Part shown: positions 7,161 to 46,617 of the stretch, piece after piece
How the letters are laid out: every line of letters begins with the position of its first letter
Position numbering within the stretch: the first letter of the stretch is position 1
Virus record (IMG/VR): IMGVR_UViG_3300022723_000184
Span: 128,001 to 192,000 of that record
Direction: 5' to 3' (one strand)
DNA from: a virus
Lineage: Duplodnaviria; Caudoviricetes
Length of the DNA: 64,000 nucleotides
The notes under the pieces: model-generated
Told to the model about the DNA's origin: nothing
The model's input: only the letters and a program-made list of their open reading frames with translations
Database searches by the model: none
Position numbers and translations under genes: made by a program

Positions 7161-8048
7161 TTGGCCAAACGCAAGTTCACGATGCACGAGCAGATGATCT
7201 TCGACGTAATCCGCAAACAGGCGGGCACGCTGTCGAAGGCGGCGTTGGAAGGCGTGATGAACGCCGTCGACGCCAACGCCTCCGAGATCAAGATCACGCT
7301 CGACGAGGGCAGGATGACCCTGTCCGACGACGGTAAGGGGTTCCGGTCCAAGAAGGAGATCGAAGACTACTTCGAGACCTTCGGCCGACCTCACACAGAG
7401 CAAGAGCAGAAGGTCTTCGGCAAGTTCCGTATGGGTCGCGGGCAGATGTTCGCGTTCGGCAGGAACCTGTGGGAGACCGGACGATTCCGGATGGACGTCG
7501 ACGTCAAGGACAAGGGCCTGGATTACGACCTGAAGGAGCTGTCCGAGAAGGAGCGGGCGCCCGGTTGCTCGATCACGATCGAGCTGTACGACCAGTTGCT
7601 GCCGAGTGACGTCGACAAGACGGTCAGGGACCTGGAGCTGTGGTGCAAGTGGGCGCCGCTCCGTGTGGTGCTCAATGACCGGGAGATCAGTTCGGATCCC
7701 GCTGCCCAGGAGTGGCAGTACGAGACGGACGAGGCCTACGTCAGTCTGACGGGTGTCGGCGGTCTGACGATCTACAACCAGGGCGTGTTCGTCATGGACA
7801 TTCCGGCCTACCGGTACGGGACGGGCGGCGAGGTCGTGACCAAGATGGGTCAGGATCTTGACGTCAACTTCGCCCGCAACGACATCCTGGCTTCGTGCCC
7901 GATCTGGAAGAAGGTCTCGCCCTTCATCGACCAGCGGGCCACGGAGAAGAACACCAAGAAGCGGGCCCTGGACGACGGCGCCCGCCAGAGGCTGGCCCAC
8001 CAGTTGAAGGCCGGCGAAGAGATCGAGTCTCATCTTCTAAACCGATGA
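7161..8048 (+). pseudogene. GHKL (HATPase_c/MORC-like) ATPase, 3' end replaced by an inverted CRISPR repeat
   Basis: EGVMNAVDA, DDGKGF, GKFRMGRGQ boxes; terminal residues SHLLNR and the stop codon come from the repeat at 8027-8062. Confidence 0.7.
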
Positions 8049-8062
8049 GCAGGTATTAAGAT
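8027..8062 (-). CRISPR. solitary CRISPR repeat, 35/36 identical to the array consensus
   Basis: minus strand reads ATCTTAATACCTGCTCATCGGTTTAGAAGATGAGAC. Confidence 0.95.
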
Positions 8063-8080
8063 CCTCGGTATTGTAGTCTA
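8063..8080 (-). promoter_or_regulatory. leader-like element with -10 box (TACAAT) upstream of the solitary repeat
   Basis: TAGACTACAATACCGAGG vs array leader TAGGTTATAATGCCGCGG (13/18), same 7-nt spacing to the repeat. Confidence 0.7.
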
Positions 8081-8139
8081 GCAAGAAGGACTTCGTGTTC
8101 GACTGGATCAAGAACATCATGCTCATTTAGGAGGTTGTT

Positions 8140-8406
8140 TTGAAAACCATTTGGAAATTCCCGCTCGAAATCGTCGACCAGCAAGAGGTCGAGATGCCTG
8201 CCGAAGCAGGCGGCATTCACGTGGAGATGCAGAACAACCAGCTGTGTTTGTGGTCGATGGTAGATCCCGAGGCGCCCAAGGTGTCCGTCAAGATCCGTGT
8301 CGTTGGTACTGGGCACCCTATCCCGGACGCCGACAAGCTGACGCACTTGGGCTCGTGCCTGATGGCCGGCGGTGCCCTCGTGTGGCATGTGTTCAAGAAG
8401 GACTAG
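8140..8406 (+). CDS. hypothetical phage protein
   Basis: TTG start after AGGAGG; IWKFPL..VVGTGHP pattern. Confidence 0.75.
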   Translation: MKTIWKFPLEIVDQQEVEMPAEAGGIHVEMQNNQLCLWSMVDPEAPKVSVKIRVVGTGHPIPDADKLTHLGSCLMAGGALVWHVFKKD

Positions 8407-9074
8407 AAGGGGTCGGATACGCGGCCTAACCAGTTTACCACCGTCGGGCCGAGGTGGTAGGCGGCGGTCTGCTCCATGTAGACCACGCGATCGCGTTCGG
8501 CCCACTGCTTCGCAAATTGGATGTCGCAGGTCTCGGCGGTCTGAAACCGTTCGGGGTACGGCTTCCGTTGCGAGGTGTGGTAGAGCTGGAAGTAGCCTCG
8601 GACCAGGCCGTGCTCGAAGGCGGCTGAGTCCGGGGGGATGTACGCCAGGCGGGTGTGATACGGGATGAACGGGTCGGCCTGCTTGATCGCATAGCGAGAG
8701 GGTACGACGAACCTTGGCGCCCCGTACAGCTTAGTAGGGTCAGGGACGACCCGGTGCAGTTGGTCGATCGTCTTCTCGGGGATCACGATGTCCGCGTCCA
8801 GGTGTAGTATCCAACCAGGGGACGCATCGAAGATGCCAGCGCACCGGCTTAGCAGGTGCGACAGTGCCTTGCCCTTGTTGAACGGTGCACCGCCCTCGTA
8901 GAAGGCGTCGGTGCGGACAAGAGAAAAGCCCAGGTCCTTGCAGACCTGGGCCGTGTGTTCGTCTTGGTTGTCGGTCACGACGACGACCCTGGGGGTCAGC
9001 CGCTTCCAGGACAGGCCGGCGATCTCCAGGGTGTCGGCGTAGTTGACGCTGACACTGACGATCGTCGGCTGCAT
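8403..9074 (-). CDS. glycosyltransferase (GT-A fold)
   Basis: FNKGKAL and LHLDADI (DxD) motifs; ATG at 9074 coupled to upstream stop. Confidence 0.75.
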   Translation of the reverse strand: MQPTIVSVSVNYADTLEIAGLSWKRLTPRVVVVTDNQDEHTAQVCKDLGFSLVRTDAFYEGGAPFNKGKALSHLLSRCAGIFDASPGWILHLDADIVIPEKTIDQLHRVVPDPTKLYGAPRFVVPSRYAIKQADPFIPYHTRLAYIPPDSAAFEHGLVRGYFQLYHTSQRKPYPERFQTAETCDIQFAKQWAERDRVVYMEQTAAYHLGPTVVNWLGRVSDPF

Positions 9075-10243
9075 CAGTAGGTGACACCCGCGGCGTGGAG
9101 CAGTTCGTCGGAGACCCGGTCCGGCTCGCTGGCCGCTTTGGTCATGATCGGGGCGATGCCCGCCTCGGTCGCGAGCTTGTCGAACAGCTCGGCGTCGTCC
9201 CGAGGCATGGTCTCGGCGATCTCCGCGAGCTTCTCGGCGTCGACGTTGTCCAGGCCCCCGGAGACCTCGTTGGCGACGTCGGAACCGAACAGGTTCTGGA
9301 TGTCGGCCAGCTTGATCTTGCCGAAGTCGTTCTTCGAGTAGATGTTGCCCGTAAGCATGGCGCAGGAGCCCTCGACCGCGGCCCTGGCCTCTTTGTAGGT
9401 GGCCTTGAAGATCACGTCCTCGGGCCGGGGCAGGGTGTCGGTGTACCGGCCGGCCAGGTTCATGGCCCGGTCCATGATGTCGACGGTCTCCGCCAGCTTG
9501 ACCAGGGCCTCGGGGACCAGGGCGTGACGGGGCTTGGAGGCCACGGTCTCCGCCAGCTTCATGATCGCCTCGCGGTGCTCGGCCGTCTTGGCCAGGCGGG
9601 CCCGGTTCGTCAGCATGGCGACCACGTCGTGGGGGTTGCACACCCCGTGGCCGGCCTGCTTCTCGATGAAGTTCTCGTGCTGGCCGAGGCCGGCGCCGTA
9701 CCGGGCGGCCTTCTCCAGGATCTTCTTGGCGATGACGTTGCGGTCGGAGAACGGCAGCTGGTCCCGGTACTGGGCCAGCCAGTCGGCGGCGGCCCGGACC
9801 TCCTGAGCGTTCTTGATCCGGAGGTTGCGGACCTTGGAGCCGTCGTCGCCCGTCCAGACGTAGGCGAAGTCCTCGTCCGGCAGCTGGTCGTCGGCGTTCT
9901 TGGTCAGCTCGACCTCGCGGGTGGCCAGCTCGTCGCAGGCCCCCTTGATGCCCCAGTACTTGGCGAAGTGATCAAGGCGTTGCTTGATGTGCGCCTGCTT
10001 CGTAGGATTGTACCCTGCCTTCTTATCGTGGAAGTACAGGTGGCTGAGCCAGGTCGACGCGGAATTGTGGCAAGGGTACCGCCTGTTCAGCTCGTCGCCG
10101 TAGACCGTCGGCGGGAGGTCCTGGGGCCGCATGGTCTGATCCATGTTGGCCTGTTTCACGAACCCGGGGATCGGGTAGAGTTTGGAGAGACGGTGAAGTT
10201 CTGCCCCGTTCGCGTCAGAGACGTGGTCGAAGGTCGTGCTCAT
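9074..10243 (-). CDS. hypothetical protein (possibly virion-associated)
   Basis: about 390-aa ORF with strong codon bias on the minus strand. Confidence 0.7.
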   Translation of the reverse strand: MSTTFDHVSDANGAELHRLSKLYPIPGFVKQANMDQTMRPQDLPPTVYGDELNRRYPCHNSASTWLSHLYFHDKKAGYNPTKQAHIKQRLDHFAKYWGIKGACDELATREVELTKNADDQLPDEDFAYVWTGDDGSKVRNLRIKNAQEVRAAADWLAQYRDQLPFSDRNVIAKKILEKAARYGAGLGQHENFIEKQAGHGVCNPHDVVAMLTNRARLAKTAEHREAIMKLAETVASKPRHALVPEALVKLAETVDIMDRAMNLAGRYTDTLPRPEDVIFKATYKEARAAVEGSCAMLTGNIYSKNDFGKIKLADIQNLFGSDVANEVSGGLDNVDAEKLAEIAETMPRDDAELFDKLATEAGIAPIMTKAASEPDRVSDELLHAAGVTY

Positions 10244-11906
10244 GGCTAAGGCACCTCGTAGTCTGAACATCCATGTTCCCTGGGCCGAGGTCGCCGAGGC
10301 TCTGGAGTTGCCCCTGAAGAGCCAGACACTCCCCGCTACGACCAGATGCCCATTGTGCGGCGGACGCCGCTTACGTATCTATCAGGATAGCACAAGCGGG
10401 GGGTCATGGCACTACTGCGGTGATTGTAAATCCCGCGGTGACATGATAACACTGGCCGGTTCCGTGTGGAAAACGGACGTCTACGAGACGCTCGACAGGC
10501 TGAGAGATGCTGGCATCGATCTGCCCGATACGCAGTTAGGGTCGCCCCAGGTCGTCAGTTACGCCGATCGACAGAAGCGACAGGCCACGATCAGCGAACT
10601 TTGGAAGCTGGCGCAGCGTCAATTGTGTGCCGGCCGGATGGGGGGAGTCGCTGACCTGCAGCGGAAGTACTATCTTCGGTTCAAAGGCGACCGTGAGCGG
10701 GTGGAGGACGGGCCGGCCAAGCTATACGGGGCCCTGACCGTCAAGCAGGCGGAGCGGGCGTTGTACAGCCCGGGGTCGTTGAACAAGTACGGGCGGACGA
10801 AGAACGCGCACCTCGCCTTCAAGGGCCGCAACTGGGGCGATGTCCTGGTCATGCCGTTCTACGACATGCCCCAGCGGATCTGTGCCCTCAGCTTTATGGG
10901 GCGCCGCGGCAATCCGAAGACCGACCAGGTGTTTTACACGACGCACACCAGCGCGATCGAGGCGGGCCTCGGCGGGCTGCCCTCGATCGAACTGGCTCAT
11001 GACCCGGACACGGTGATTGCCGTAGACGACTGGCTGTTCTACTTGCGGGCCCAGATCCGCCACTTCCGCAGCTCGTACATCCCGATGCCCATGGTCGTAT
11101 GGCGGGACGAGGGCAAGATCAGGACCCAGCGGGCGTGGAACGCGGTCAGTGACAAGAACATCGTGTTCTGGGGGTTTAACTTGGACGCCCGGATGATCCG
11201 GCACGCGATGGAGACCGACGGCATGATCTCGCTGCTCGGGCCCAAGGAGTTTGTCGACGACCAATCGGTCGGCCACTTCCTGCGGGACCACCGGGGCACC
11301 GACCTGCCCCGCGACGTCATCCGGGCCGCGAGGCCGTGGCGCAAGGCTCTGGCCCACTGGCTCTCGTGCAATAGGCCGGAGCACGGCCACAATCTGTTCA
11401 AGGCCCTCGAAGAGCTGGGCGAGGACGTCAGCCACATCCTGAACCAGATCGGCAAGGGCCCGACGACGATCGCCCGACCGGTCATGCGGAGGTCGGCCGA
11501 GGTCGGCCCCTACACGATCTCCGAGCGAGGCGGGTGCTGGTACCACGACAGGTACAGGACCCGGCCCGAGCTGATCATGGATGCGGTTCTCAGGGTGACC
11601 CATGCGATCAACGACCTGCGGTCGGGTGACCTATGGTACCGCGGGTTCATCGAGTACCGCGGGCAGCGGATCTATTTTCTGGAGCCGGCCAAGACCATGG
11701 AGGGCCGGACCCTGTTCTGGATCCGGGACAAGGTCAGCGCCGCGGGTCTCGGGCTGCTGCGGTACAGCTCGATCTGGTCACGGGGTGGGAGGCACAATCT
11801 GTACCAGGTGGCCGTGACCTTCGACGAACCGCGGTTTGTGAATGAAGACCTGGCCTTGCACGTGCAGGAGATGCGTGAAGCCGGGCACCTGATCGATCCG
11901 ATCTAG
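10242..11906 (+). CDS. protein with N-terminal primase-type zinc-binding domain
   Basis: CPLC...HYCGDCKSRGDMI motif; no clear TOPRIM motif seen. Confidence 0.55.
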   Translation: MAKAPRSLNIHVPWAEVAEALELPLKSQTLPATTRCPLCGGRRLRIYQDSTSGGSWHYCGDCKSRGDMITLAGSVWKTDVYETLDRLRDAGIDLPDTQLGSPQVVSYADRQKRQATISELWKLAQRQLCAGRMGGVADLQRKYYLRFKGDRERVEDGPAKLYGALTVKQAERALYSPGSLNKYGRTKNAHLAFKGRNWGDVLVMPFYDMPQRICALSFMGRRGNPKTDQVFYTTHTSAIEAGLGGLPSIELAHDPDTVIAVDDWLFYLRAQIRHFRSSYIPMPMVVWRDEGKIRTQRAWNAVSDKNIVFWGFNLDARMIRHAMETDGMISLLGPKEFVDDQSVGHFLRDHRGTDLPRDVIRAARPWRKALAHWLSCNRPEHGHNLFKALEELGEDVSHILNQIGKGPTTIARPVMRRSAEVGPYTISERGGCWYHDRYRTRPELIMDAVLRVTHAINDLRSGDLWYRGFIEYRGQRIYFLEPAKTMEGRTLFWIRDKVSAAGLGLLRYSSIWSRGGRHNLYQVAVTFDEPRFVNEDLALHVQEMREAGHLIDPI

Positions 11907-14860: not shown

Positions 14861-15029
14861 GAAAGATCAGTCCTATCATCAAGCAGACCGGGACGAGGGC
14901 GTGGATTGGCTCGCCAACCTGCTCGAAGTCCTGTTCTCCAGCCTCTGGGCAGTCGTGGTCGTCGTTGCCACGGGCCTCTGGGGCCTGTTATGCTGGGCAC
15001 GTAAGATGTTGTCCAGCAAGAGCAAGTAG
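14859..15029 (+). CDS. small membrane protein
   Basis: one hydrophobic segment followed by a basic tail. Confidence 0.5.
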   Translation: MKDQSYHQADRDEGVDWLANLLEVLFSSLWAVVVVVATGLWGLLCWARKMLSSKSK

Positions 15030-15288
15030 GTTTCACTATAAGGTGCGGAGGCTAGGATGGCTACACACTCTCGCAGTGCCCGTAACTTCCTGGAGCGGAA
15101 CGGGGTTTACTCAACCCGCCGTTCACCGGTCACGCCGCGGCTCGACACCACGAAAGCCGGGCTCCGGGTGAACACCATCCCGTTACAGCAACCGTCGTTG
15201 AACCCAGATCTTTTGCTGGATAACAACGGTGCCCCTCCGACAGATAGGGGGATCACGGACCCCTGGCCTCCGCCGCAGGAGGTGTCTG

Positions 15289-15477
15289 ATGAGTCAGAGG
15301 AATAACGGAGCTGACGTCGTATTTCAGTTCTTCCTCTGGATTGTCGTGGGCGGCATGGTTTTTACCTACGTCTGCGACATCTGGTTGCACTGGGTGCCGA
15401 TCGGTCTAGCACTGCTTGTGTCCATGTGGACGGGGCAGTCGATGCAAAAGCAACGATCGGATACCCGAGACCCATAA
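15289..15477 (+). CDS. small membrane protein
   Basis: two hydrophobic segments; RBS GGAGG. Confidence 0.55.
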   Translation: MSQRNNGADVVFQFFLWIVVGGMVFTYVCDIWLHWVPIGLALLVSMWTGQSMQKQRSDTRDP

Positions 15478-15496
15478 CCGCACCAACCGAAACCTG

Positions 15497-16098: not shown

Positions 16099-16112
16099 AA
16101 AAAGTACTTTTT
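16099..16112. promoter_or_regulatory. palindromic motif AAAAAGTACTTTTT
   Basis: exact copy, directly before the RBS of 16125. Confidence 0.7.
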
Positions 16113-21315: not shown

Positions 21316-21539
21316 GCCATTTTGTGGCTTTGGTGTTCACAGACCGTGAGCCCGACCAGCACAGGTTGCAGGAAAGCCGGTCGAGTTGGAGTTCGACGGC
21401 CACGGCGGCCCCGGGTCGGCCCTCGGGGGCTGGCGGATCCTGACCGAGGTCCTCTGATGACCCTGTTCTCGGAGCGGGCCACCCGAAGGGCCTACTGGGC
21501 CCTGGGTGGTCCGGAGAACAACCGCTGCTGGCGGCCGAG

Positions 21540-21575
21540 TCGCCAACAGGCTGCTCATCGACAAGAGGATGAGAC
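21540..21575 (+). CRISPR. degenerate solitary repeat upstream of cas12m
   Basis: CTGCTCATCG-(7 nt)-GATGAGAC vs repeat CTGCTCATCG-(8 nt)-GATGAGAC; 6-bp stem intact; ends 20 nt before the ATG. Confidence 0.7.
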
Positions 21576-21595
21576 AAAAAAAAAAGGAATAGCGC

Positions 21596-23365
21596 ATGGG
21601 ATTCAATAAGGACCCAGAGGCCCGCTGTGTGGTTTACCAGTACGGCGGCAAACATCCGACGGAAAACGAAGACGAAGCGATCAACCAGCTCGCCAAGGCG
21701 AACCGTTTTCGGAACCGGCTCGTTGAGTTGGAGCTACAACGACGTGAAGAATACCACGCTGCGTTCTCGGGTTACGGAGACCTGGCGGAGCCGTCAAATC
21801 AGCTTGAGACGCTCAACGAGCAGCTGACCGCTGCGGTGGCAGAACTTAAGGCGTGGAGACAATTGAACGGCACTCGAAGTCAACACCCGACGCTAACCCC
21901 GCAGATCGTTTCGCTACGGGCTCAGGCTCGCCAGCTACGGACACAGATCAAGTCGATCAAGGAAGCGGCCAAAGGCGATCCTACGGTGCAGGCGGCAATC
22001 GAAAAAGCAAACCAGCAGCACCGAGATCAGACCAAAGCTGCGTACGGCGCTGTAAGAGAATCGAACCCGGAGGCCGAGGACGCCAGAGACCGGCATGGGT
22101 TGTTCTGGGGAACGGCCCTCCTAGTTCAAAGGGCAGCGACACAGTTCCAGAAGGGCCCTCCCCCGAGGTACAAACGTTTCGACGGGACGGGAACTATCGG
22201 CGTGCAGCTGCAGAACGGGATGTCTGTGGAGGATCTGTTCACTCCGGGCGGCAGCGTCTGGATTGACCCCGTTCCTCCGGAGGCCTGGGACCCGCAGACG
22301 CCGAGAGGTCAAAGGCGAAAACTCGCAAGAACGATGCTACACATGCGGATCGGCGGGAAGCCGCAGGCCTGGGTGATTCTAAAGCTACCTGTCACCGTGC
22401 ACAGACCGCTGCCTGCAGGAAAACTTATCAAGTGGGTCACGGTCACTCGGCGTAAGTACGGTTCACAGGCGCGGTGGTATGTAAACGTCACGACGGATAT
22501 CAGGTCTGGTGGCACGCTTCACGATGATGTTGCGGCTGCCGGATTTGTGGGTGTCGACCTGGGTTTCAGGTTGTTCAAGCCCGCAGAAAGCAGCTCAGGC
22601 AAGCGATCGCTCCGAGTGGCTGTATGGGCCGGAGATGACGGGGAGACAGGCGAACTTCGCCTCGACGCGAGGTTTATGTCCTACATCTCAAAGGCCGACG
22701 GTTTGAGGTCGATCCGGGACAAGCGGCTTGATCAGATCAGAGCGGCGCTGCTTCCGTTGTGTGACGAGGCGGGTACGCCGGAGTGGTGGAAAGACGACAC
22801 TCAACACATGGCCAAATGGAGGTCTCCTCGAAAGCTGTATCACTTGCTCCACAAGTGGAAAGACAACAGGTGGGATGGCGACAAAACGCTGTTCGATCTG
22901 TTGGTTAAGTGGGTAGTTCAGGACCGTCACCTCCACGTGTGGGAAGCCAACAATCGCCGAAAAGTAGCGGCTCGTCGCCTGGACATGTACCGGAACCTGG
23001 CGGCCTCTTTGAGGCGCAAGTACGCGGTTATCGGGATCGAAGACATCGATTGGCGGATCTGGAGCAAGTTGGCCCTGCCCGAAGAAGAGGAGACCAAGTC
23101 AAAGAAGTTCCGTGTTCAAAAGAAACATGCGGCGGTCGGTCTGCTTGCAGAGACGCTGTCGAATTGCGGGGCACAGGTTGTACGTTTGGATCCCGCTTAC
23201 ACGACGAAGCGGTGCAACGCCTGCGGCAAGATCACCGAATTTGACGCTGACCGGCACCTGCGACATACGTGCGAACATTGCCATGCGGAGTGGGACCAAG
23301 ACTACAATGCGGCAAAGAACCTGCAAGACATGGCGAGCGGCAACGCCGTAACGCAAACCGCGTAG
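21596..23365 (+). CDS. cas12m: type V CRISPR effector, Cas12m (V-U1/V-M)-like, 589 aa
   Basis: RuvC-I GVDLG, RuvC-II IGIED, zinc finger CNAC/CEHC, RuvC-III DQDYNAA; RFDGTGTIGVQLQ and WRSPR motifs recalled from Cas12m; array 137 bp downstream. Confidence 0.85.
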   Translation: MGFNKDPEARCVVYQYGGKHPTENEDEAINQLAKANRFRNRLVELELQRREEYHAAFSGYGDLAEPSNQLETLNEQLTAAVAELKAWRQLNGTRSQHPTLTPQIVSLRAQARQLRTQIKSIKEAAKGDPTVQAAIEKANQQHRDQTKAAYGAVRESNPEAEDARDRHGLFWGTALLVQRAATQFQKGPPPRYKRFDGTGTIGVQLQNGMSVEDLFTPGGSVWIDPVPPEAWDPQTPRGQRRKLARTMLHMRIGGKPQAWVILKLPVTVHRPLPAGKLIKWVTVTRRKYGSQARWYVNVTTDIRSGGTLHDDVAAAGFVGVDLGFRLFKPAESSSGKRSLRVAVWAGDDGETGELRLDARFMSYISKADGLRSIRDKRLDQIRAALLPLCDEAGTPEWWKDDTQHMAKWRSPRKLYHLLHKWKDNRWDGDKTLFDLLVKWVVQDRHLHVWEANNRRKVAARRLDMYRNLAASLRRKYAVIGIEDIDWRIWSKLALPEEEETKSKKFRVQKKHAAVGLLAETLSNCGAQVVRLDPAYTTKRCNACGKITEFDADRHLRHTCEHCHAEWDQDYNAAKNLQDMASGNAVTQTA

Positions 23366-23489: not shown

Positions 23490-23495
23490 TATAAT
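23490..23495 (+). promoter_or_regulatory. -10 box of the array leader
   Basis: perfect TATAAT 7 nt before repeat 1; no consensus -35. Confidence 0.6.
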
Positions 23496-23502
23496 GCCGC
23501 GG

Positions 23503-24247
23503 ATCGTAATACCTGCTCATCGGTTTAGAAGATGAGACGCGGCATTGATTGCCTTCTTGAGTTGCTGCTCCAACATCGTAATACCTGCTCATCGGTTTAG
23601 AAGATGAGACATCGCCGCATCGCTGGAAGCGGGCGTGGCGTCGGCGGATCGTAATACCTGCTCATCGGTTTAGAAGATGAGACCTTTCTCTGTGTCCGAG
23701 ATAACGGGGTCACTAATGTCATCGTAATACCTGCTCATCGGTTTGGAAGATGAGACAAGCATCCGAGCAGCCGCTACAAGGACAAGATCGGCATCGTAAT
23801 ACCTGCTCATCGGTTTAGAAGATGAGACTAGTCGGGCAATTGCTCGAACGGCACAGAGATATCGTCATCGTAATACCTGCTCATCGGTTTAGAAGATGAG
23901 ACGCTTACCGGTGGCCGAGGCCAAGGCGCGATGGAGAACATCGTAATACCTGCTCATCGGTTTAGAAGATGAGACACGGTGGATCCGGTCGAGCGGCTGA
24001 TCCTTCACATCATCGTAATACCTGCTCATCGGTTTAGAAGATGAGACCCGGTGATCGACGCGGTCCTCGAGAACGCCGAGGACATCGTAATACCTGCTCA
24101 TCGGTTTAGAAGATGAGACAAGTGGATCAGGTTCTTCTCATCGTAATACCTGCTCATTGGTTTAGAAGATGAGACGCGGACTGCCCCGAGATGCGGCGCC
24201 GGCTGTGGGTAATCGTAATACCTGCTCATCGGTTTGGAAGATGAGAC
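23503..24247 (+). CRISPR. CRISPR array, 11 x 36-bp repeats and 10 spacers (36-38 nt, one of 20 nt)
   Basis: repeat ATCGTAATACCTGCTCATCGGTTTAGAAGATGAGAC with CTCATC/GATGAG stem; single-base variants in repeats 4, 10 and 11. Confidence 0.99.
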
Positions 24248-35535: not shown

Positions 35536-35568
35536 AAAGGCCCATCACCTGGTAAGTGATGGGCCTTT
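35536..35568. terminator. hairpin terminator
   Basis: 13-bp stem AAAGGCCCATCAC / GTGATGGGCCTTT. Confidence 0.75.
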
Positions 35569-35697
35569 CGTGCGGTGGTGGCCTTGGTGTGGTCTCGCCC
35601 TGTAGGTTGGCGAGCTGGCATTGTTAATGCCCAAGACCTGTGGTGGTCTTCACATCTTAGCGCCAGCCACCCACCAACGCAAGGAAAGTGGTGCGGC

Positions 35698-38001: not shown

Positions 38002-38004
38002 GGC

Positions 38005-39636
38005 ATGGCGAAGAAGAACAAGGAAGTGGCTAGGCGGGCAGCCGCAGACCCCGCCAAGAAAGAACGCATGATGGCGATCCTCATCCAGAACGATGAGGTG
38101 TACAACGCCGTGGCCGAGGCCCTCAAGCCGGAGCTGTTCCCGTCGCACGACATGATGTATTCCGTGCTCTGGGGCGTGGTGAAGAAGTTCAAGGAGGAGC
38201 ACGAGGATTTCCCCGACTACCAGCTGTTGCAGGCTGAGGTCTCGGACGTGCTCGGCGACGACCCCGACCTGTTGAACGACACGGAGATCGACGAGCTGAA
38301 CCAGTTCATCGACTTCGCGTTCGACAAGGACTCGTTTGACGACAACCCGGCGACGTCCTCGAAGTACGCCAGGTGGGCCATCAAGCAATTTCGGGCCTTC
38401 CTGGAAGAGCGAATCGCTCACGAGGCGAGGGATCAGATCTACAAGGACAACTCGGTGCCGGTGAACCTGCCCGACCTGCTGGACGACCTGCAGAACCGGG
38501 TCGAGCAGGTGCGGGCCGTGGCCGACGGTACTGTCAAGCCAGCGTTCCCCGAGGACTGGGACAAGAAGACGGCGCTGCAACTGTTCAGCACCGGAATCTC
38601 GTTCCTCGACCGGTTCCTGGGCGGCGGCCACGCCAACGGCGAACTGTACGGGATCCTCGGGCCGTACGGCAGCTGCAAGACCACGCTGGCCATCATGATC
38701 CTGGTCAACGCGGCCAAGGCCTTCCTCGCTCAGTCCAAGACCGGGGATAACCCCAAGAAGAAGATCGCCTTCATGGTCAGCTACGAGGCCCGCCTGCCTG
38801 AGATGCGGGCTCGTTCCCTGGGCTACGCCGCGAAGGTCCAGCGGAGCACGATGGAGAGCATGACGTCGAAGGACGACCTGTCGACGTCCGGTAACCTCCG
38901 CCCCTACGAGAAGCGGCTGTTCAAGAAGAAGATCGCCCAGGGCAAGAAGGTCAAGGGCGAGCGGGAGCGGATCGACGCTGCGACCGGGTGGATGAACGAG
39001 CACATCTCGTTCATCGACATGACCGGGTACGACGACGATCACCGCAAGGCCGGTGGCGGCGGCATCAAGGAAATCGCCCGCCGCATAAACCAGGTGCTGC
39101 GGGCCAACCCTGGCACCGAGTGCGGCCTCGTGGTCATCGACTACGTGGGCGCCATGGTCAAGCGACAGATGGCTGCCGAGGACCTGGACGACGCCGCTCG
39201 CCGGCATCTGATCTCCGACACGCCCCTCCTCACCAAGGCACAGATCGCGGACCAGTTTGACTGCCCCATCTGGTTCATGCACCAGATGTCGGGTGAGGCC
39301 AACGCCCGCGGTGAAGGCGCGAAGATGCACCACACGGACTCGGCGGAGGCCAAGAACTTCGCCGAGAACCTGGACTTCGCTTTTGTGTTGGGTAACACCA
39401 ACTCGGACAACCTGGCGACGCTGGCCTGCACCAAACGCAGACGCCAGCCGCCTAAGGACTCAACGATCATCAAGATCGATGGCGGCATGAACCGGGTGCT
39501 GGACATGGAGGACAGGTTCGTCCTCGACACCAGGACCAAGAAGATCATGTCGCACGATGAGCAGCATAAGCTGCCGCACGCTCCGGGCGAGCAGGCCGCG
39601 GCCTCAGCCCCGAGCCCCGTAATGCTGGATGAGTGA
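38005..39636 (+). CDS. DnaB-like replicative helicase
   Basis: GPYGSCKTT Walker A, VVIDY Walker B, HQ motif; adjacent primase. Confidence 0.85.
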   Translation: MAKKNKEVARRAAADPAKKERMMAILIQNDEVYNAVAEALKPELFPSHDMMYSVLWGVVKKFKEEHEDFPDYQLLQAEVSDVLGDDPDLLNDTEIDELNQFIDFAFDKDSFDDNPATSSKYARWAIKQFRAFLEERIAHEARDQIYKDNSVPVNLPDLLDDLQNRVEQVRAVADGTVKPAFPEDWDKKTALQLFSTGISFLDRFLGGGHANGELYGILGPYGSCKTTLAIMILVNAAKAFLAQSKTGDNPKKKIAFMVSYEARLPEMRARSLGYAAKVQRSTMESMTSKDDLSTSGNLRPYEKRLFKKKIAQGKKVKGERERIDAATGWMNEHISFIDMTGYDDDHRKAGGGGIKEIARRINQVLRANPGTECGLVVIDYVGAMVKRQMAAEDLDDAARRHLISDTPLLTKAQIADQFDCPIWFMHQMSGEANARGEGAKMHHTDSAEAKNFAENLDFAFVLGNTNSDNLATLACTKRRRQPPKDSTIIKIDGGMNRVLDMEDRFVLDTRTKKIMSHDEQHKLPHAPGEQAAASAPSPVMLDE

Positions 39637-40706
39637 TGGCTGAGTATTTGAATCCAAGTTTGCACCGCCGGCTCGTGCGGGACTTCGGGCACGTCAAGGT
39701 CTCCAACGAAGGGGAGAAGATGCTCGCTAAGTACAAGCGGGACTTCTTCTCAGGGGAAGACAAGCTCGACGTGATGTACCCGGGCGAGTACTACCAGGTG
39801 AACTGTCCCAAGTGCAGCGACACCCGGCACCGGCTTTACATCAACCACATGTGGGGCGTCCGCGACGAGCGAGGCCGCCGGAACCTGTGGCTGATGGTCT
39901 GCTACAACGAGGGGTGCTTCTCCTCGTACCGCGACCGGGAGGACCTGTTCGACCGGCTGGAAGAGCGCGCTGGCGTCCTGGGCAAGGCCAGGATCCACGA
40001 GGGCAAAGAAGTCGACCTGGACTCGATCGAGATCGAGCCGCCGGGCCCGATTACGCGGCTGGACAAACTGCCGCCTGAGCACCCGGCCAACCGATACTTG
40101 GTCAGCAGGTTTTACGATCCGGAGCGGCTGGGGAGGTGCTACGGAGTCGGTTACTGCCAAGAGAGCCTGTATTACCTGGCTCGAAACCGCGTGTACGCAC
40201 CGTTGTATTTCGGCGGAAAGCTGCGCGGTTGGCAGTGCCGGTACGTGGGCGAGATCGACAAGCGGAACGAAAACCCTCCGCCGAAGTGGTGGAGTTGTCC
40301 CAACATGAAGAAGTCCCACGTCATCTACAACTACGACCAGATGAAGAAGTGGCAGACCGGGGTGATCGTGGAGGGCCCCGGCGACGTCTGGGGCTTTGGT
40401 CCGATGGCCGGCGCTACGCTCGGCGCCACCATGTCTCCCCAGCAGCAGCGGCTGTTCACGGCCGCGTTCCGGAAGCAGGGCGGCGTGCTCCTCTACGACC
40501 CCGAGGCCATGGTGGCCAAGGACAAACACGGCAAGCTCAAGATGGAGCGGCTGGCTGAAAAGCTGTCGTCCGGCACCAAGCTGGGCGTGGCTCCGGTCAC
40601 CCTTCCGTACGGAGATCCCGGAAGCCTGGACCGACGGTTCATGCGAGAGTTCGTGACAAAGGAGGCCGCGTCGATGGGCGTGAAGGTCTCCTGGAAGAAG
40701 CGGTGA
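39633..40706 (+). CDS. DNA primase
   Basis: zinc site CPKC...CYNEGC; TOPRIM IVEGPGD, LLYD. Confidence 0.85.
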   Translation: MMAEYLNPSLHRRLVRDFGHVKVSNEGEKMLAKYKRDFFSGEDKLDVMYPGEYYQVNCPKCSDTRHRLYINHMWGVRDERGRRNLWLMVCYNEGCFSSYRDREDLFDRLEERAGVLGKARIHEGKEVDLDSIEIEPPGPITRLDKLPPEHPANRYLVSRFYDPERLGRCYGVGYCQESLYYLARNRVYAPLYFGGKLRGWQCRYVGEIDKRNENPPPKWWSCPNMKKSHVIYNYDQMKKWQTGVIVEGPGDVWGFGPMAGATLGATMSPQQQRLFTAAFRKQGGVLLYDPEAMVAKDKHGKLKMERLAEKLSSGTKLGVAPVTLPYGDPGSLDRRFMREFVTKEAASMGVKVSWKKR

Positions 40707-43700
40707 CGATGGCCAAGCAGAAACGACGCAAGGTGATCAAGGACCTGGATCGTCACCGCAGCCGCGGTAAGGCGAAGGAGGTCCAGGACGAGCTGGACGG
40801 GATCGGGATGTACCCGCTGGACGCTCCGGGTATGCCCATGCCGGGCCCGGATTTCCTGGAGAACGCTCGGAGGCTCGGGGACAAGAACAAGGAGCGGACC
40901 GACAAGGTCACGCTGCCCGATGGTCGGCGGAAGACCGTTAAGTCGATCGAGCCCGGCGAGTGGCTGGAGGTGTTGCACGCTCGGGCCCTGCGGGATCCTA
41001 ACTTCAACATGTCGATCCAGGTGAAGGCGGGCCTACGCAAGCAGGTCAATTTCGTGCCCGGTCACATCTGGGGCCAGCACCAGAAGGAGTACGCCCAGGG
41101 CATCGACCTGCCGGTGGACGGGCCGAGGCCGGCCGACATCATGGTCATTGGCAAGATGCCGGGCCAGACCGAGGTCCAGGAGAAACGCAACTTCGTGGGC
41201 GAGTCCGGGGCCCTGCTCCTGGAGGTGCTCCGGGATCTCAAGATCAAGGGCATGGGCAAGTGGTACATCACGAACCTGTGCAAGTTCCACCCGCCTGACG
41301 GGCAGTCGACGCTCAAATCGGGCTGGATCAAAGACTGCATGCCGTTGCTCCACCAAGAGCTGCGGATCGTCAGGCCCAAGTACATCTTGTGCCTGGGTGC
41401 CGATGCCTCGAAGGAGCTGTTGGGCAAGAAGAACAACGTCCACTACATGGACGGCCGGGTCGTGGAGCTGGAGTACCCGATCAACGTGGATGGTGAGGAG
41501 GTGCTGCACAAGTCGCACGTGATGACCGTGGTCCATCCGGCCGCGGTAGCCCGGGCGCCGGAGCAGCGACGCATGTTGGAGCGAGGACTTTCCCGCTTCG
41601 ACATGCTCACCAAGGGCATCCGCTGGGACCTGGAAGAGAAGGACATCGACCACCGGGCCATCCGTACGCTGGAAGAACTCAAGTCGCTTCTCTGGGAGAT
41701 CGAGAATGACCCAACCAAGAAAGACAGGGTCATCGCCGTCGACGCCGAGTGGCACGGCGAACACCCCGTCAATAAAGGAAGCTATGTACGAACGGTTCAA
41801 TTTGCGTGGCAAGAGAAGAGAGCTTGTGCGGTCGTACTTCGAGGTCCTGGCGGAAAGGTTACGTTCGTCGACGAGGACGGAAAGCCCGCCATCAAGCGAG
41901 GACTCAGGCTCCTAAGCAAGTTCTTCAAAAACAAGCGGGTGGTCGGCCACTTCTTTGTGGCTGACCTTGAGTGGTTGGTCGACATCGGCCTGGATCTTGT
42001 CCCGAGCTACCGCGTGCCCCTCCGGGACAAGCGGGTGGACCAGTTCAGCGGCCGACTCAAGCGGCGGTACGAGAAGCTGGGCTTCAGCGACCGCGACTAC
42101 GTTCCCGCTTGGCTCCGCACCAAGTACGAGGGCGGCGCCGACACCGGCCTCATGGCACACGCTATCGAGGAGACCGCCATGCTGGGCTTGGAAGGCCTGG
42201 CCATGCGGTACACGACCGTGCCCCGGTACGACATCCCGCTGCACGAGTGGCGGGAGCAGTTTTGCAAGGACCGCGGTCTCAAGTCGAAGGACTTGGAGGG
42301 GTACGGCGAGTGCCCCGACGAGATCCTGATCCCGTACGGCATCTACGACGCCGACGCTACCCTGCGGCTCTTCTACGCGCTGAACAAGTTGCTCGACTAC
42401 GACTACGAGGGCAACTGCTGCCGCGAGCCGTTCTGGGAGGCGATGATCGCGTGCCCCGCGATCTTGGAGATGCACCAGACCGGCATCCCCGTCCACAAGC
42501 CACGCATCGACTACCTCACCGAGGTGTTCATGGAGGCCCGGACGGAGATGGAGGCCAAGATCCGCACCTGGGCCAAGTGGTCGGAGTTCAACGTTCGGTC
42601 GGTCCAGCAGGTGCGGGAGTTCCTGTTCGGCGAGCAGCTGAATGGGAAGGTGACCAAGGACGGCGGGACCGTGAGGATCCGCCCCAAGGGCGCCAAGAGC
42701 CTGTACGTTGAGCCCCTGCTAGACACGGGCAAGCCTCCCACCCAGTGGTGGCAGGTCAAAGAGAAGGGCCTGGAGGGCGAACGCAGCCCGTCCACCAACA
42801 AGGCGGTGCTCGCCATCTTGGCCCAGGAAAACGAGGAGGCATCGGACCAGATCAACTGGCTCCGGGACTATCGCTTCCTCGACCAGGTGCTCAAGAGCCT
42901 TCTGAGACCGCCGGTCACCGATGACGACGGCAACTGGCTGATGGAGTCGGACGGCGATGGGCTGGGCGGCCTGCTGTTCGACGCCGGCCTGGCCAGCGTG
43001 GTCTGCAACGACGGTCGGGTCCGCACCCACCTCTATCCCACGACTGAAACGGGGCGGTGGCGTTCGGCTCGACCCAACCTGCAGAACATCAGCAAGCAGA
43101 GAGATGCCGACTACGTCCGGATGCTTGGCGAGAAGTACAAGCACAAGCTCCGCTCGATTCTCAAGGCCCCTCCCGGGTACCTGCTGATCGAGGCCGACTA
43201 CATCGGGGCCGAGCTGTACGGCATGGCCACGATGTCCGGCGACGAGGTGATGATCGACCACTGTCAGCGAAACCAGCTGCCGGAGGACGACCCCAACTTC
43301 TATGACATCCACTCGAACGTGGCGGTGTTCGCGTTCAAGCTGGACTGTCCGCCCACGAAGGCGGGGCTCAAGGCGATCAACAAGGCCCACCTGCGGATCG
43401 TGGCCAAGAGCGTGATCTTCGGCATCGCGTACGGACGTGGTGCCAAGGCCATTGCGCTGGCGGCCAAGGAGCAGGGCGTGGAGATCACGGCCGACGAGGC
43501 CCAGCAGGTGATCGACACGATCTTCGACATGTACCCTGGCCTCCGTCCGTTTTTCGAGGAGTGCAAGAGCCGGGCTATCAACGACGGCTGGCTTTGCCAC
43601 TGCTTCGGCCGGTTCCGCCGGTTCCCGCGGACGGACGACTACAAGCTCCAGGGCGAGTTCGAGCGGCAGGCGACCAACTTCCCGATCCAGGGGATGATCG

Positions 43701-44044
43701 CCAGCGCCGTGGACCGGGCGGTCGCCGAGATCTACGAGTACCGGCACGAGGTCGGGGTGCCCGACATGTACAAGATGGTCCTGCAGATCCACGACGCCGT
43801 GGTCCTGCTGGTCCCGTACGAGCACGCCGAGCGGGTGGTGGACGAGGTGCTGCCTGTTTGCATGCAGCAGCGGGTCCCCATCTACCCGACCAACCTGGCT
43901 GGCGTCCCCACCGGAAAGGGCCCCTATACCCTTGGCATCGACACCGAGGTCATGGTCCACTGGGGCGAACACGTCACTAAGGAACAGGCCGCCAAGTGGG
44001 GCGTGCCTAGCGTCACCGCGGGCGGCACGAAGCTGGTCGCTTGA
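40703..44044 (+). CDS. polA: family A DNA polymerase with N-terminal UDG family 4-like domain and 3'-5' exonuclease
   Basis: DAEW exonuclease, TGRW..RPNLQNI, ADYIGAE motif A, R..AK...FGIAYG motif B, QIHDA motif C; UDG-like GKMPG..E...FVGESG. Confidence 0.93.
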   Translation: MTMAKQKRRKVIKDLDRHRSRGKAKEVQDELDGIGMYPLDAPGMPMPGPDFLENARRLGDKNKERTDKVTLPDGRRKTVKSIEPGEWLEVLHARALRDPNFNMSIQVKAGLRKQVNFVPGHIWGQHQKEYAQGIDLPVDGPRPADIMVIGKMPGQTEVQEKRNFVGESGALLLEVLRDLKIKGMGKWYITNLCKFHPPDGQSTLKSGWIKDCMPLLHQELRIVRPKYILCLGADASKELLGKKNNVHYMDGRVVELEYPINVDGEEVLHKSHVMTVVHPAAVARAPEQRRMLERGLSRFDMLTKGIRWDLEEKDIDHRAIRTLEELKSLLWEIENDPTKKDRVIAVDAEWHGEHPVNKGSYVRTVQFAWQEKRACAVVLRGPGGKVTFVDEDGKPAIKRGLRLLSKFFKNKRVVGHFFVADLEWLVDIGLDLVPSYRVPLRDKRVDQFSGRLKRRYEKLGFSDRDYVPAWLRTKYEGGADTGLMAHAIEETAMLGLEGLAMRYTTVPRYDIPLHEWREQFCKDRGLKSKDLEGYGECPDEILIPYGIYDADATLRLFYALNKLLDYDYEGNCCREPFWEAMIACPAILEMHQTGIPVHKPRIDYLTEVFMEARTEMEAKIRTWAKWSEFNVRSVQQVREFLFGEQLNGKVTKDGGTVRIRPKGAKSLYVEPLLDTGKPPTQWWQVKEKGLEGERSPSTNKAVLAILAQENEEASDQINWLRDYRFLDQVLKSLLRPPVTDDDGNWLMESDGDGLGGLLFDAGLASVVCNDGRVRTHLYPTTETGRWRSARPNLQNISKQRDADYVRMLGEKYKHKLRSILKAPPGYLLIEADYIGAELYGMATMSGDEVMIDHCQRNQLPEDDPNFYDIHSNVAVFAFKLDCPPTKAGLKAINKAHLRIVAKSVIFGIAYGRGAKAIALAAKEQGVEITADEAQQVIDTIFDMYPGLRPFFEECKSRAINDGWLCHCFGRFRRFPRTDDYKLQGEFERQATNFPIQGMIASAVDRAVAEIYEYRHEVGVPDMYKMVLQIHDAVVLLVPYEHAERVVDEVLPVCMQQRVPIYPTNLAGVPTGKGPYTLGIDTEVMVHWGEHVTKEQAAKWGVPSVTAGGTKLVA

Positions 44045-44046
44045 CG

Positions 44047-44076
44047 TTGCAGAGAGGTAGGCCGCCGTGGTAAAAT
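44047..44076 (+). promoter_or_regulatory. possible sigma70 promoter with extended -10
   Basis: TTGCAG-18 nt-TAAAAT preceded by TG. Confidence 0.4.
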
Positions 44077-44240
44077 CAGGACCGCCGAAAGGCACCGCAA
44101 CCACCGTTGAACCGCACCCGAAGGCCGAGGATCTGATACCGCTCGCAAAGAAGGCAAGGTAGGCGTGCTCCGCATACCTGGCCGACTGCGAAGAGAAGTA
44201 TCAGCGGCGAAGAAAATGGAGGAAAAGGAACAGGATCCCT

Positions 44241-44717
44241 GTGCTCGCACTCTGCGGGTACGGCCGAGCCGGCAAGGACTACTCAGCAAAATACCTGTGT
44301 TCCCTGACCGCGATGCAGTACGGAGGCAGCACGTCTTCCGTCGTAGCGCCGTTGATCGCCAACGCTCTGAACCAGCCGGTTGATCAGACGTTCGCCGAGC
44401 GGCACGACAACCGGATGTTTTGGTTCGAGTTCTGCAACGCACTCCGCCTCCACGACCCGTCGATGTTGGCCCGTATGAACCTGGGCAGTGGCGACATGGT
44501 GGTCGGGATCAGGAGTGAGGTCGAGCTTCACGCGTGTGTTTCGCAAGGCGTGGTCGACTACACGGTCTGGGTCGATAACCCAAGGGCAGAGTTGGATCCG
44601 ACGGTTGAGTATGGCCAAGAAGACTGCCACCTCACCGTGAGTAACTGTGGGTCAAGGCTTCAGCTTTTCGAGAAGCTCGACAAGCTGTTGGACCTGATGA
44701 GCAAAACGTACTTTTGA
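44241..44717 (+). CDS. deoxynucleoside monophosphate kinase-like protein
   Basis: N-terminal P-loop CGYGRAGKD, GIR..E motif. Confidence 0.7.
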   Translation: MLALCGYGRAGKDYSAKYLCSLTAMQYGGSTSSVVAPLIANALNQPVDQTFAERHDNRMFWFEFCNALRLHDPSMLARMNLGSGDMVVGIRSEVELHACVSQGVVDYTVWVDNPRAELDPTVEYGQEDCHLTVSNCGSRLQLFEKLDKLLDLMSKTYF

Positions 44718-44733
44718 CAGGAAGGAAGCCATC

Positions 44734-46521
44734 ATGGCAAAACAACGAAAAGGAAGTCGGCTGAAGCCTCGCGGCGCCGGCCAGTACAGCAACAAGACAC
44801 ACGCCAAGGGCGACAGCTCGATGCCGCCCGACGACAGGTCGCTCAAGACCAACCTGGCCCGCGTCACCCTGGTCCGGCCCAAGTTCACCGGCGGCCCCCT
44901 GTGGTTCCGCCCGTGGCCGTGCCCGGACTTCGCCGATCCGGAGAAGCTGGTCCCCGGCCGCGAGTCCACCGAGGCCCGTGGCCAGAGCCAATGGATCGTC
45001 CGGGCCGAGATGGCCCCATACATCGGCCTCAACGATCCGGCCTGCGAGAAGGTGAGCTTCATCACCCGCTACCCGTGGGACCGTGAGGCCAAGCGGAACA
45101 ACCCGTACCGCGTCCTCTACTTCGCGGCCAAGGACGCTCACGAGGCCGGCTCCTTCGGGCCCGGCCGCAAGTGGGACTCCTACTGGAACAAGATCCTCAG
45201 CGGCAAGAAGGGGCGTGGCGCCGAGCTGGGCTCCCCCTCGCCAAAGTGGTTCGTTCAGGGCGTGGTGTACGCTAACGGCGAGAAGGACTACACGGCCGAT
45301 CGCGACCTGCCGCTGGGCATGGACCCGGCGGACGACCTGGTCGTCATCCAGATGTCGTCGAGCGCCGGCGGCAAGCTCCTGGACCTCCTTGACATCCCGA
45401 AGAAGAACTTCGACGGGGATCCCGAGGAGACCCCTTGGGCGGCGTACAAGTACGGCGACTCTTGCGGCATCGTGAACCCGAAGACCGGGGGCATCGATGG
45501 CGGCCTGATCATGGGCCTGTTCAACCCGGAGAAGACCAAGGACATCGTGAAGAACACGTCCTGGGATCCGGACGAGAAGGACCGTGACATCAAGGGCTAC
45601 GAGGCGGCCATCAGGGCCAGCTTTAAGGGCGCGGACGGCGACGTCTACAAGCCCTCGCTCGACGCCGCCCAGGTGCAGCACATCGGCGAGAAGATACAGT
45701 TCTGGTGGGACGACGTCGACGAGGCCGGCAACATCCAGTCTCCCGGCCTCCTGTGGGTCCCGTCGATCGAGGAGCAGTGCGTCCTGATCGCCAAGGCCTT
45801 CCGCACCGTCCCGCGGCTCCTGCAATACGCCTGGGCCGACTTCGAGGACGAGTTCCTCACCGACGACGTGCGTGGTGTGCTCAACGCCCGCAAGTCGGCG
45901 GTCATGCCGGGCACGGACGGCGACGAGGACGACGATGATGACGACGGCTTCGAGGATAAGAAGCCGCCGAAGCGTGGGGGCGCCAAGCAGGATCCCACAC
46001 AGGCCTCGCAGGACGACGACGATGACGACGAGTTCGAGGACGAGGGTGAAGAGGAGTCCGAAGCCGAAGCCGAAGGCGACGAAGGCGAAGAGGAGGGTGA
46101 CGACGATGGCGACGACACCTTCCCCGACGACACGGTCGACGACGGCGAGGGCGAGGAAGAGCCCGAGTCCGAGGACGGCGACGACGAGGGCCTCGAAGAC
46201 GATGACGACGAGGACTTCGGCGAAGACGACGAAGACTTCGGCGAGGACGCTGGCGAGGAGGAAGGGGAGGAAGAGCCCGAGGGCGACGACTCCGACGACT
46301 CTGAGGACGAGGACGGCGAAGAGGAGGAAGACTCTGAGAAGGCCATGAGGGCCTCGCTCGACGCCGCCAAGGCCCGCCAGGCCAAGCGTGCCACGAAGGC
46401 CGCCCCGGCCAAGAAGTCGACGTCGAAGAAGACGACCGCCAAGAAGACGGGCTCCAAGAAGGCCACGTCGAAGAAGACGACGAAGAAGACCTCGGCCAAG
46501 AAGACCAAGGCCAAGGGCTGA
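44734..46521 (+). CDS. hypothetical protein with long acidic tract and basic AKKT tail (possible ssDNA-binding protein)
   Basis: composition directly visible; SSB role inferred from position before the recA-like gene. Confidence 0.7.
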   Translation: MAKQRKGSRLKPRGAGQYSNKTHAKGDSSMPPDDRSLKTNLARVTLVRPKFTGGPLWFRPWPCPDFADPEKLVPGRESTEARGQSQWIVRAEMAPYIGLNDPACEKVSFITRYPWDREAKRNNPYRVLYFAAKDAHEAGSFGPGRKWDSYWNKILSGKKGRGAELGSPSPKWFVQGVVYANGEKDYTADRDLPLGMDPADDLVVIQMSSSAGGKLLDLLDIPKKNFDGDPEETPWAAYKYGDSCGIVNPKTGGIDGGLIMGLFNPEKTKDIVKNTSWDPDEKDRDIKGYEAAIRASFKGADGDVYKPSLDAAQVQHIGEKIQFWWDDVDEAGNIQSPGLLWVPSIEEQCVLIAKAFRTVPRLLQYAWADFEDEFLTDDVRGVLNARKSAVMPGTDGDEDDDDDDGFEDKKPPKRGGAKQDPTQASQDDDDDDEFEDEGEEESEAEAEGDEGEEEGDDDGDDTFPDDTVDDGEGEEEPESEDGDDEGLEDDDDEDFGEDDEDFGEDAGEEEGEEEPEGDDSDDSEDEDGEEEEDSEKAMRASLDAAKARQAKRATKAAPAKKSTSKKTTAKKTGSKKATSKKTTKKTSAKKTKAKG

Positions 46522-46534
46522 TCGCAGTCGGTGG

Positions 46535-46569
46535 GGGGAGGGCCGAACAACCGGCCCTCCCCTATTTTT
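46535..46569 (+). terminator. rho-independent terminator
   Basis: GGGGAGGGCCG / CGGCCCTCCCC stem followed by TATTTTT. Confidence 0.8.
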
Positions 46570-46581
46570 GACCGCTGGGGA

Positions 46582-46617
46582 GTCGTAATGTCCGCTCACC
46601 GGCTTGGAAGATGAGAC
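46582..46617 (+). CRISPR. solitary degenerate CRISPR repeat upstream of the recA-like gene
   Basis: GTCGTAATGTCCGCTCACCGGCTTGGAAGATGAGAC, 30/36 to repeats 4 and 11; 11 nt before ATG 46629. Confidence 0.88.

Follow-up and report, generated by a model that had tools for sequence, protein, structure and literature searches.

We analysed a 64,000-nucleotide (nt) stretch of phage DNA, hereafter the window, which corresponds to bases 128,001–192,000 of the 201,946-bp IMG/VR virus record IMGVR_UViG_3300022723_000184, together with the rest of that record. The phage encodes Cas12m, the effector of type V-M CRISPR systems, and besides the CRISPR array beside the effector gene it carries ∼16 solitary copies of the repeat spread over 170 kb. 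Seven of these units are in the sense orientation shortly upstream of start codons, and nine are oriented against the neighbouring gene, most of them behind a promoter-like box. The copies, the conservation of their structure, the putative promoters and the positions are directly established. The reading that we favour, tentatively and as one that falls just short of probable, is that the units are transcribed Cas12m-binding handles that would place the effector on phage RNAs; binding, processing and any effects on expression are inferred.

The effector gene, cas12m (21596–23365, plus strand; positions are those of the window unless given as genome positions), encodes a product of 589 amino acids that matches both PDB structures and PF07282. 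Residues 14–578 match the Cas12m entry 23vw with an E value of 5.9e-67; further matches are to 8hhl (Cas12m2, E = 1.5e-26), 8hio, 8pm4 and UnCas12m4a, and that to PF07282 has an E value of 3e-13. Across 13 homologues, the RuvC-like residues D321, E482 and D569, four zinc-ribbon cysteines, and H269 and R270 are invariant or nearly so. In Cas12m2, H269 and R270 make base-specific contacts to the CRISPR RNA (crRNA) scaffold (PMC10442227). The gene gave the single cas12m match in the whole genome, and no cas1 gene or Cas1 protein was found there. Because its G+C content at third codon positions (GC3) lies far below that of the neighbouring genes (0.67 versus ∼0.85), a foreign origin is suggested, that is, acquisition of cas12m from elsewhere.

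Directly downstream of cas12m is the array (23503–24247, plus strand), with 11 repeats of 36 nt, the terminal one intact, and spacers of 36–38 nt with a single exception of 20 nt (24120–24139). The array leader contains a −10 box, TATAAT (23490–23495, plus strand), 7 nt ahead of the first repeat. Within 23496–23545, the last 6 nt of the leader (GCCGCG) are complementary to those that open the first spacer (CGCGGC), and their pairing would give a predicted hairpin around the first repeat. The terminal repeat (24212–24247) is followed by 23 nt and then by a partial repeat tail, GAAGGCGAGAC; the sequence AAGGCGAGAC, also found after the terminal repeat, recurs after the solitary unit at genome position 100873.

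Solitary units were sought in the whole genome by three scans: a mismatch search, a covariance model trained solely on the Cas12m repeats of other phages, and a position/pair model that takes account of the pseudoknot. In the window, the array repeat with up to three mismatches had 12 matches where 0 were expected, namely the 11 repeats of the array and 8027–8062. The pattern CTCATC-N7-10-GATGAGAC also had 12 matches against 0 expected, including 21554–21575 on the plus strand. With the position/pair model there were 24 matches of at least 14 bits, compared with one in a reversed-sequence control. The three scans combined gave the ∼16 solitary units, five of them inside the window. On the minus strand they lie at genome positions 5222, 7620, 46773, 53583, 105824, 124139, 136027 (8027 of the window) and 163592 (35592); on the plus strand they lie at 67847, 72751, 100873, 101885, 125944, 136826 (8826), 149540 (21540) and 174582 (46582).

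A first-pass annotation of the window had named the effector as Cas12m, had described three solitary copies (8027–8062, 21540–21575 and 46582–46617) as placed other than at random, and had proposed the mismatch search of the full genome. The match to 23vw bears out the effector, and all three copies are present at these coordinates. Their non-random nature is upheld by the 12 matches against 0 expected and by the retained crRNA-handle structure, and the count of three proved too low, given the five in the window and ∼16 in the record. The identity of 35/36 for the minus-strand copy at 8027–8062 and its own copy of the leader, the intact 6-bp stem and 3′ end (GAC tail) of 21540–21575, and the distances of 20 and 11 nt to the start codons of cas12m and the recA-like gene were all correct. 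The identity of 46582–46617 is 29/36, not 30/36.

No second degenerate repeat was found within 95 nt of any unit, all scores lying inside the null distribution, and the elements are therefore solitary units rather than mini-arrays. A reading as mini-arrays of the CreR/CreA/crlRNA type was rejected, as no unit has the repeat-spacer-repeat arrangement. They are solitary repeat units in the broad sense: they lie outside the array, occur beyond chance and match the cognate repeat.

Among 32 distinct repeats from the Cas12m loci of other phages, two interleaved helices covary strongly, with 91% of cells paired compared with 63% after shuffling and 30–44% when the partner was slid; double changes occur at all nine pairs, and the GAC tail is invariant. 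The two helices are those of the stem I/stem II pseudoknot known from Cas12m crRNAs (PMC11013384, PMC10442227). The geometry of the units and of the repeat agrees with the solved Cas12m2 scaffold, which comprises a 6-bp pseudoknot helix, a G·A pair, the H269/R270 contacts and a 17-bp guide duplex (PMC10442227). Folding the units singly by minimum free energy was uninformative, since the handle is a pseudoknot.

In most units helix A is CTCATC/GATGAG. It is changed on both sides, with pairing restored, in the units at genome positions 105824 (CGCACC/GGTGTG), 125944 (CATATC/GATATG), 136826 (CGCACC/GGTGCG), 163592 (CTCGCC/GGCGAG) and 67847 (CCCGCC/GGCGGG). For helix B, the array type has ACC/GGT, and six units, which we term 'family B', have GCC/GGC. 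Compensatory changes are thus found in both helices, which argues for selection on the RNA fold of the units rather than decay. A second effector serving the family B units was considered and rejected, as the genome has one cas12m.

The seven sense units have their 3′ ends 16, 12, 24, 17, 16, 20 and 11 nt before start codons preceded by a Shine-Dalgarno motif. With a spacing of 11–24 nt, the 17–20 nt that would take the guide position therefore coincide with the ribosome-binding site and usually with the start codon too. The genes that these units head are cas12m, a UvsX/RecA-like gene, a baseplate J-like gene and its upstream neighbour, and three small uncharacterised open reading frames (ORFs). 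The first-pass annotation had suggested that effector level is coupled to the expression of recombination genes; a unit does head the UvsX/RecA-like gene, and the suggestion is too narrow in that this is only one of the seven. The units at genome positions 67847 and 174582 are placed after intrinsic terminators, and that at 72751 has a leader-like TATAAT 29 nt upstream.

Two of the sense units lie in the window. The one in the cas12m leader (21540–21575, plus strand) has helix A and the GAC tail exact and a loop 1 nt shorter; only its 3′ 25 nt are common with the repeat, helix B is lost and the covariance model did not detect it. The sequence that follows (21576–21595) consists of A10 and a weak GGAA Shine-Dalgarno motif, the ATG being 20 nt downstream of the unit. 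An ORF of 50 codons (21457–21609) crosses this unit and overlaps the start of cas12m. The other (46582–46617, plus strand) is of the family B type, with one C·A mismatch in helix A, a score of 25.9 bits and a covariance-model E value of 1.5e-3 per genome. Its 3′ end lies 11 nt ahead of the ATG (46629) of the UvsX/RecA-like recombinase gene (46629–48158, plus strand; phrog_97, E = 1.3e-13; PF00154, E = 2.2e-6).

Most of the nine antisense units adjoin or overlap the upstream plus-strand gene at its 3′ end. In six to seven of them TATACT, TACACT, TATAAT or TACAAT ends 5–7 nt upstream of the unit, as in the array leader; the background frequency of a −10 box at the array-leader distance is 0.15%. 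Of the seven genomic occurrences of a 12-nt leader motif, six are directly ahead of a repeat. The box at leader spacing is present before most of the antisense units and absent before the sense units. The pairs at genome positions 5222/7620 and 124139/136027 are identical across ∼50–58 nt, including the leader part. In three cases (46773, 53583 and 136027) the antisense unit supplies the stop codon of the upstream gene. The genes concerned are unrelated, enter the unit in the same frame (at genome positions 46773–46794, 53583–53604 and 136027–136048, the last being 8027–8048 of the window) and end with Ser-His-Leu plus one to three residues.

Within the window, the unit at 8027–8062 (minus strand; 33 bits), the same as that at genome position 124139, matches the array repeat at 35 of 36 positions. 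A GHKL-ATPase-like gene (7161–8048, plus strand) has its final 22 nt, stop codon included, within this unit. The −10 box of the unit, the TACAAT of the leader copy (8070–8075, minus strand), lies 7 nt upstream, like the TATAAT of the array. At 124139 two gene calls disagree, one of them putting the unit in the sense orientation upstream of a minus-strand gene. The unit at 35592–35627 (minus strand; stem CTCGCC/GGCGAG) scored 27 bits with the covariance model and 20.4 bits in a further scan. It is followed by 22 nt and then by a bidirectional terminator hairpin (35539–35566), lies between this terminator and the ATG of a helicase gene (35699), and resembles a stand-alone gene for a small RNA. 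A further candidate (8826–8862, plus strand; 30.4 bits) has the stem CGCACC/GGTGCG, a GCC/GGC helix B and an upstream leader-like TAGTAT. It is less certain, being antisense within a minus-strand GT2-like coding frame with no obvious insertion.

Using a profile of Cas12m homologues, we found 60 IMG/VR contigs that encode a Cas12m relative, many of them 100–210 kb in length. When 13 other Cas12m phage genomes were scanned whole, nine had convincing dispersed units far from their arrays. Of the 23 units in the eight genomes whose gene calls were reliable, 17 run in sense inside operons. Several units end 12–27 nt before start codons (in G017, after the portal gene, and in G028, G009 and G019). 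A TAGAAT immediately precedes one antisense unit of G017, and in L050 a unit precedes cas12m. Dispersed handles are therefore general for phage Cas12m, and the large promoter-driven antisense class is particular to the present genome.

In another of these phages (L038:2588–2926, equivalent to G020 84720–85095), eight handles ∼50 nt apart, with ∼14-nt spacers, immediately precede cas12m and share its orientation. As such spacers are too short to guide, the tandem resembles a sponge or a regulatory leader. Elsewhere (L149:15573–16190, in G019) the gene for an AbiEii-like nucleotidyltransferase toxin is preceded, at a distance of 27 nt, by a sense unit, an arrangement that recalls CRISPR-repressed toxin modules. 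The closest Cas12m (L009:11922–12614, 46% identity) is encoded on a phage-like contig of 87 kb and 38% G+C. The repeat of L009 resembles the family B units, and no solitary unit was found in the 21.7 kb examined. Its terminal repeat has a destroyed 3′ arm; ordinary arrays can thus inactivate their last repeat, whereas the units of the present phage have been kept intact. Solitary units are not mentioned in a recent preprint that describes the Cas12m of its myxophage as the first in a phage (10.64898/2026.09.14.751636).

Any account of the units has to explain a conserved protein-binding fold, predicted transcription in both orientations (by read-through for the sense units and from their own putative promoters for the antisense units) and the placement at ribosome-binding sites. 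These three are most simply accounted for if the units bring the Cas12m of the phage to phage RNAs. Sense units would be cut by the effector within their 5′ part, in the way that pre-crRNA is (PMC11013384). Cas12m would then remain bound to the handle, its guide channel taken up by the Shine-Dalgarno region, so that the start of translation would be occluded or stabilised and translation or mRNA stability altered. On the cas12m mRNA itself, such a handle could provide negative feedback and hence autoregulation. The antisense leader-repeat modules would yield one-guide crRNA-like RNAs that, together with the array, could load Cas12m or compete for it and so titrate it. A phage nucleus, should one be formed, would keep the effector from the phage DNA but not from the exported RNAs, which agrees with a role at the RNA level.

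Several observations weigh against this account. The cas12m-leader unit is the most degenerate of all, having lost helix B as well as the repeat's 5′ portion, and a unit lies upstream of the gene at only ∼3–4 of 45 other phage cas12m loci. No shared function was seen among the genes headed by units, within or across phages. The closeness of units to ribosome-binding sites may simply follow from short intergenic gaps, and the antisense class is not explained by cis-regulation. Published work on Cas12m describes only DNA binding dependent on a protospacer-adjacent motif (PAM) and pre-crRNA processing, with no role on mRNA (PMC11013384, PMC10442227).

A stronger form of the proposal would make Cas12m mainly an RNA-binding post-transcriptional regulator, with sense operators on at least seven mRNAs, its own included, and with the array and antisense units as sponges, in the manner of CsrA/CsrB. 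We consider this possible but not likely. MS2 coat protein, T4 RegA and CsrA/CsrB provide precedents for proteins that act on structured RNA by the Shine-Dalgarno sequence and are titrated by decoys. The likeness of the units to these operators is in the proposed working only: the proteins are unrelated, and an action of Cas12m on translation is a proposal.

The guide of TnpB is drawn from flanking DNA through its omega-RNA. By the same logic the units could be single-guide crRNA genes for DNA silencing, each using its flank as a guide to PAM-flanked copies elsewhere, whether in co-infecting relatives that lack the unit, in the host or in the phage's own element at 61116–61155. The putative promoters and intact handles would suit such genes, as would the terminator 22 nt past the handle at 35592, which resembles that of a small guide gene, and known Cas12m orthologues silence by binding DNA (PMC11013384). 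When every array spacer and the 40 nt that follow each unit were searched against the whole genome, there was a single genuine second-site match: of the 16 unit guides, only that after unit 124139 had a second site, matching 61116–61155 (minus strand) at 28/29 nt on the same strand. This site is a promoter-like intergenic element, and the two loci are paralogous intergenic regions that share it. Mismatches fall at guide (seed) positions 2 and 9 and the 5′ flank is GAG, whereas published Cas12m PAMs are T- or C-rich (PMC11013384). An assignment of the units as crRNA-like RNAs, with a spacer partly complementary to a promoter beside a valid PAM, was rejected, the sole match being this GAG-flanked site with seed mismatches.

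Self-directed guides do exist in the group, since array spacers in five other Cas12m phages have perfect or near-perfect matches in their own genomes (G026:11461–11495, G025:15319–15353, G027:23697–23734, G014:80551–80587 and G019:80420–80455). These are sense to the target gene where this can be called, but none has a T- or C-rich 5′ flank. A comparison of the spacers of 14 phages with the 14 genomes gave only GC-rich partial matches of a chance-like kind and no protospacer that yielded a PAM. No match to the array was found in phage records in the protospacer and PAM search, and the phage, IMG/VR and species-genome collections had none to array or unit sequences. Each unit guide is flanked, at its own locus, by the repeat tail, GAC, and guides at the 3′ ends of genes would be poor silencers. 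With a lone match lacking a PAM, a GAC self-flank and no match for the array, self-regulation at the DNA level is little supported in this genome, and we regard DNA silencing by the units as unlikely.

The units might instead be neutral or selfish scars, leader-repeat modules that were spread by recombination and tolerated only between genes. The two pairs of units that are identical over ∼50–58 nt, leader part included, suggest recent copying or gene conversion, the three stop codons that units supply are insertion-like, and sporadic gain and loss of ectopic repeats has been reported by Shmakov et al. (10.1101/2023.03.03.530964). Scars would not be expected, however, to keep both helices by compensatory changes in diverged units, to have a −10 box at a fixed distance before antisense units and not before sense units, or to recur in unrelated Cas12m phages. 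We therefore rate this explanation as rather improbable.

Promoter-bearing solitary repeats in a virus are the defining form of RNA anti-CRISPRs (PMC10651486), and the units could accordingly be Racr-like decoys for the Cas12m of a host or competitor, or a restraint on the phage's own effector, with the flank irrelevant. The family B units do depart from the array repeat of this phage and are similar to the repeat of L009, and the eight handles with ∼14-nt spacers in G020 are sponge-like. Yet the repeat core was found neither in IMG/VR nor in 185,579 species genomes, the latter giving no host or competitor array with this repeat, and so as far as is visible no host system is mimicked. The units also covary with the system that the phage itself encodes, and the sense units have no promoters and lie in mRNA leaders, and we rate decoys as quite improbable. 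It is very improbable, finally, that the units are self-directed roadblocks, each RNA returning Cas12m to the adjacent DNA, PAM-free or with the tail as PAM, to punctuate or feed back on transcription: the genome does have 178 of 190 genes on one strand (plus, by a GC3-based gene call), antisense units at gene 3′ ends and sense units at gene starts, and self-binding would be harmless because the effector does not cut (PMC11013384), but all tested Cas12m orthologues require T- or C-rich PAMs (PMC11013384), and the GAC that is invariant in the 32 repeats would, as a PAM, make every array spacer self-targeting.

The locus resembles the characterised type V-M systems (MmCas12m2, GoCas12m and MsCas12m) in its homologous effector and in its 36-nt repeat, whose two helices form a pseudoknot and which ends in GAC (PMC10442227, PMC11013384), as well as in lacking cas1 and in having the array just downstream of the effector gene. 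It differs in being encoded by a jumbo phage and in its ∼16 solitary handles, none having been reported for those systems. Solitary repeat units, regulatory mini-arrays and RNA anti-CRISPRs are already known as such (10.1101/2023.03.03.530964; PMC10651486). The solitary repeat units beside cas12a and the mini-arrays, CreR, CreA and crlRNA (Shmakov et al. 2023) are likewise standalone repeat-like elements with a proposed regulatory role, and as here one can lie directly upstream of the effector gene. Those elements, however, are located in or beside cas loci and usually have two repeats and a spacer that partly matches a cas promoter with a valid PAM. The units of the present phage are single, extend over 170 kb, are positioned on ribosome-binding sites or antisense, and have no PAM-flanked target.

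Racrs are also viral solitary repeats with their own promoters, which here are putative (Camara-Wilpert et al. 2023, PMC10651486). Racrs mimic host repeats and poison host Cas complexes, whereas the units match the phage's own system; mimicry of a host repeat was not seen among the 185,579 species genomes, the host itself not having been identified. In extraneous crRNA, which arises from the terminal repeat and its flank, the guide is whatever adjoins the repeat, as it would be for the units; arrays usually suppress such RNAs (PMC13187072), whereas here the repeats are multiplied and intact. The TnpB omega-RNA/TldR systems similarly take a guide from flanking DNA (PMC10705468), but no logic of target- or protospacer-adjacent motifs was found for the units. 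In the literature searched, we found no virus-encoded, non-cutting effector with its own handles placed genome-wide in mRNA leaders and antisense promoter modules, and the first-pass annotation, too, knew of no such arrangement for Cas12m.

CRISPR effectors have been viewed as tools of defence and counter-defence, and Cas12m has been known only as a DNA-binding silencer. If the units do recruit Cas12m to phage RNAs, a CRISPR protein would have been co-opted for the control of viral genes, its own mRNA and the recombination and baseplate genes included. A compact protein, a 36-nt operator and a sponge would then be natural parts for synthetic circuits. Units recur across many Cas12m phages that are unrelated, which suggests that type V-M biology has a general side not described before. 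Were Cas12m to be mainly an RNA-level regulator, the finding would be raised beyond a variant of known elements.

The virus record as a whole has a G+C content of 62.5% and an estimated completeness of ∼90%. Outside the window, it encodes a tubulin homologue (genome positions 197393–197881) and an intein-laden beta subunit of a multisubunit RNA polymerase (39224–42168). Tubulin and a multisubunit RNA polymerase are hallmarks of nucleus-forming jumbo phages. With the gene of 2248 amino acids and LAGLIDADG/Hint inteins at genome positions 46858–53604, they suggest that the phage is chimallivirus-like and may be nucleus-forming. No close relative of the phage was found by blastn of the locus against phage records, by a search for the repeat core in IMG/VR or by Cas12m and UvsX protein scans of IMG/VR. 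In metagenomes the repeat core likewise revealed no relative, giving only six matches within a single conserved gene that is unrelated, plus a small foreign array.

No Rfam families and no transfer RNAs were found in the window. Two short-period repeats were seen within ORFs: a 148-nt run of GTCGCG/GTCGTG hexamers at 5852–5999, and seven copies of CCTGCC at 63749–63792.

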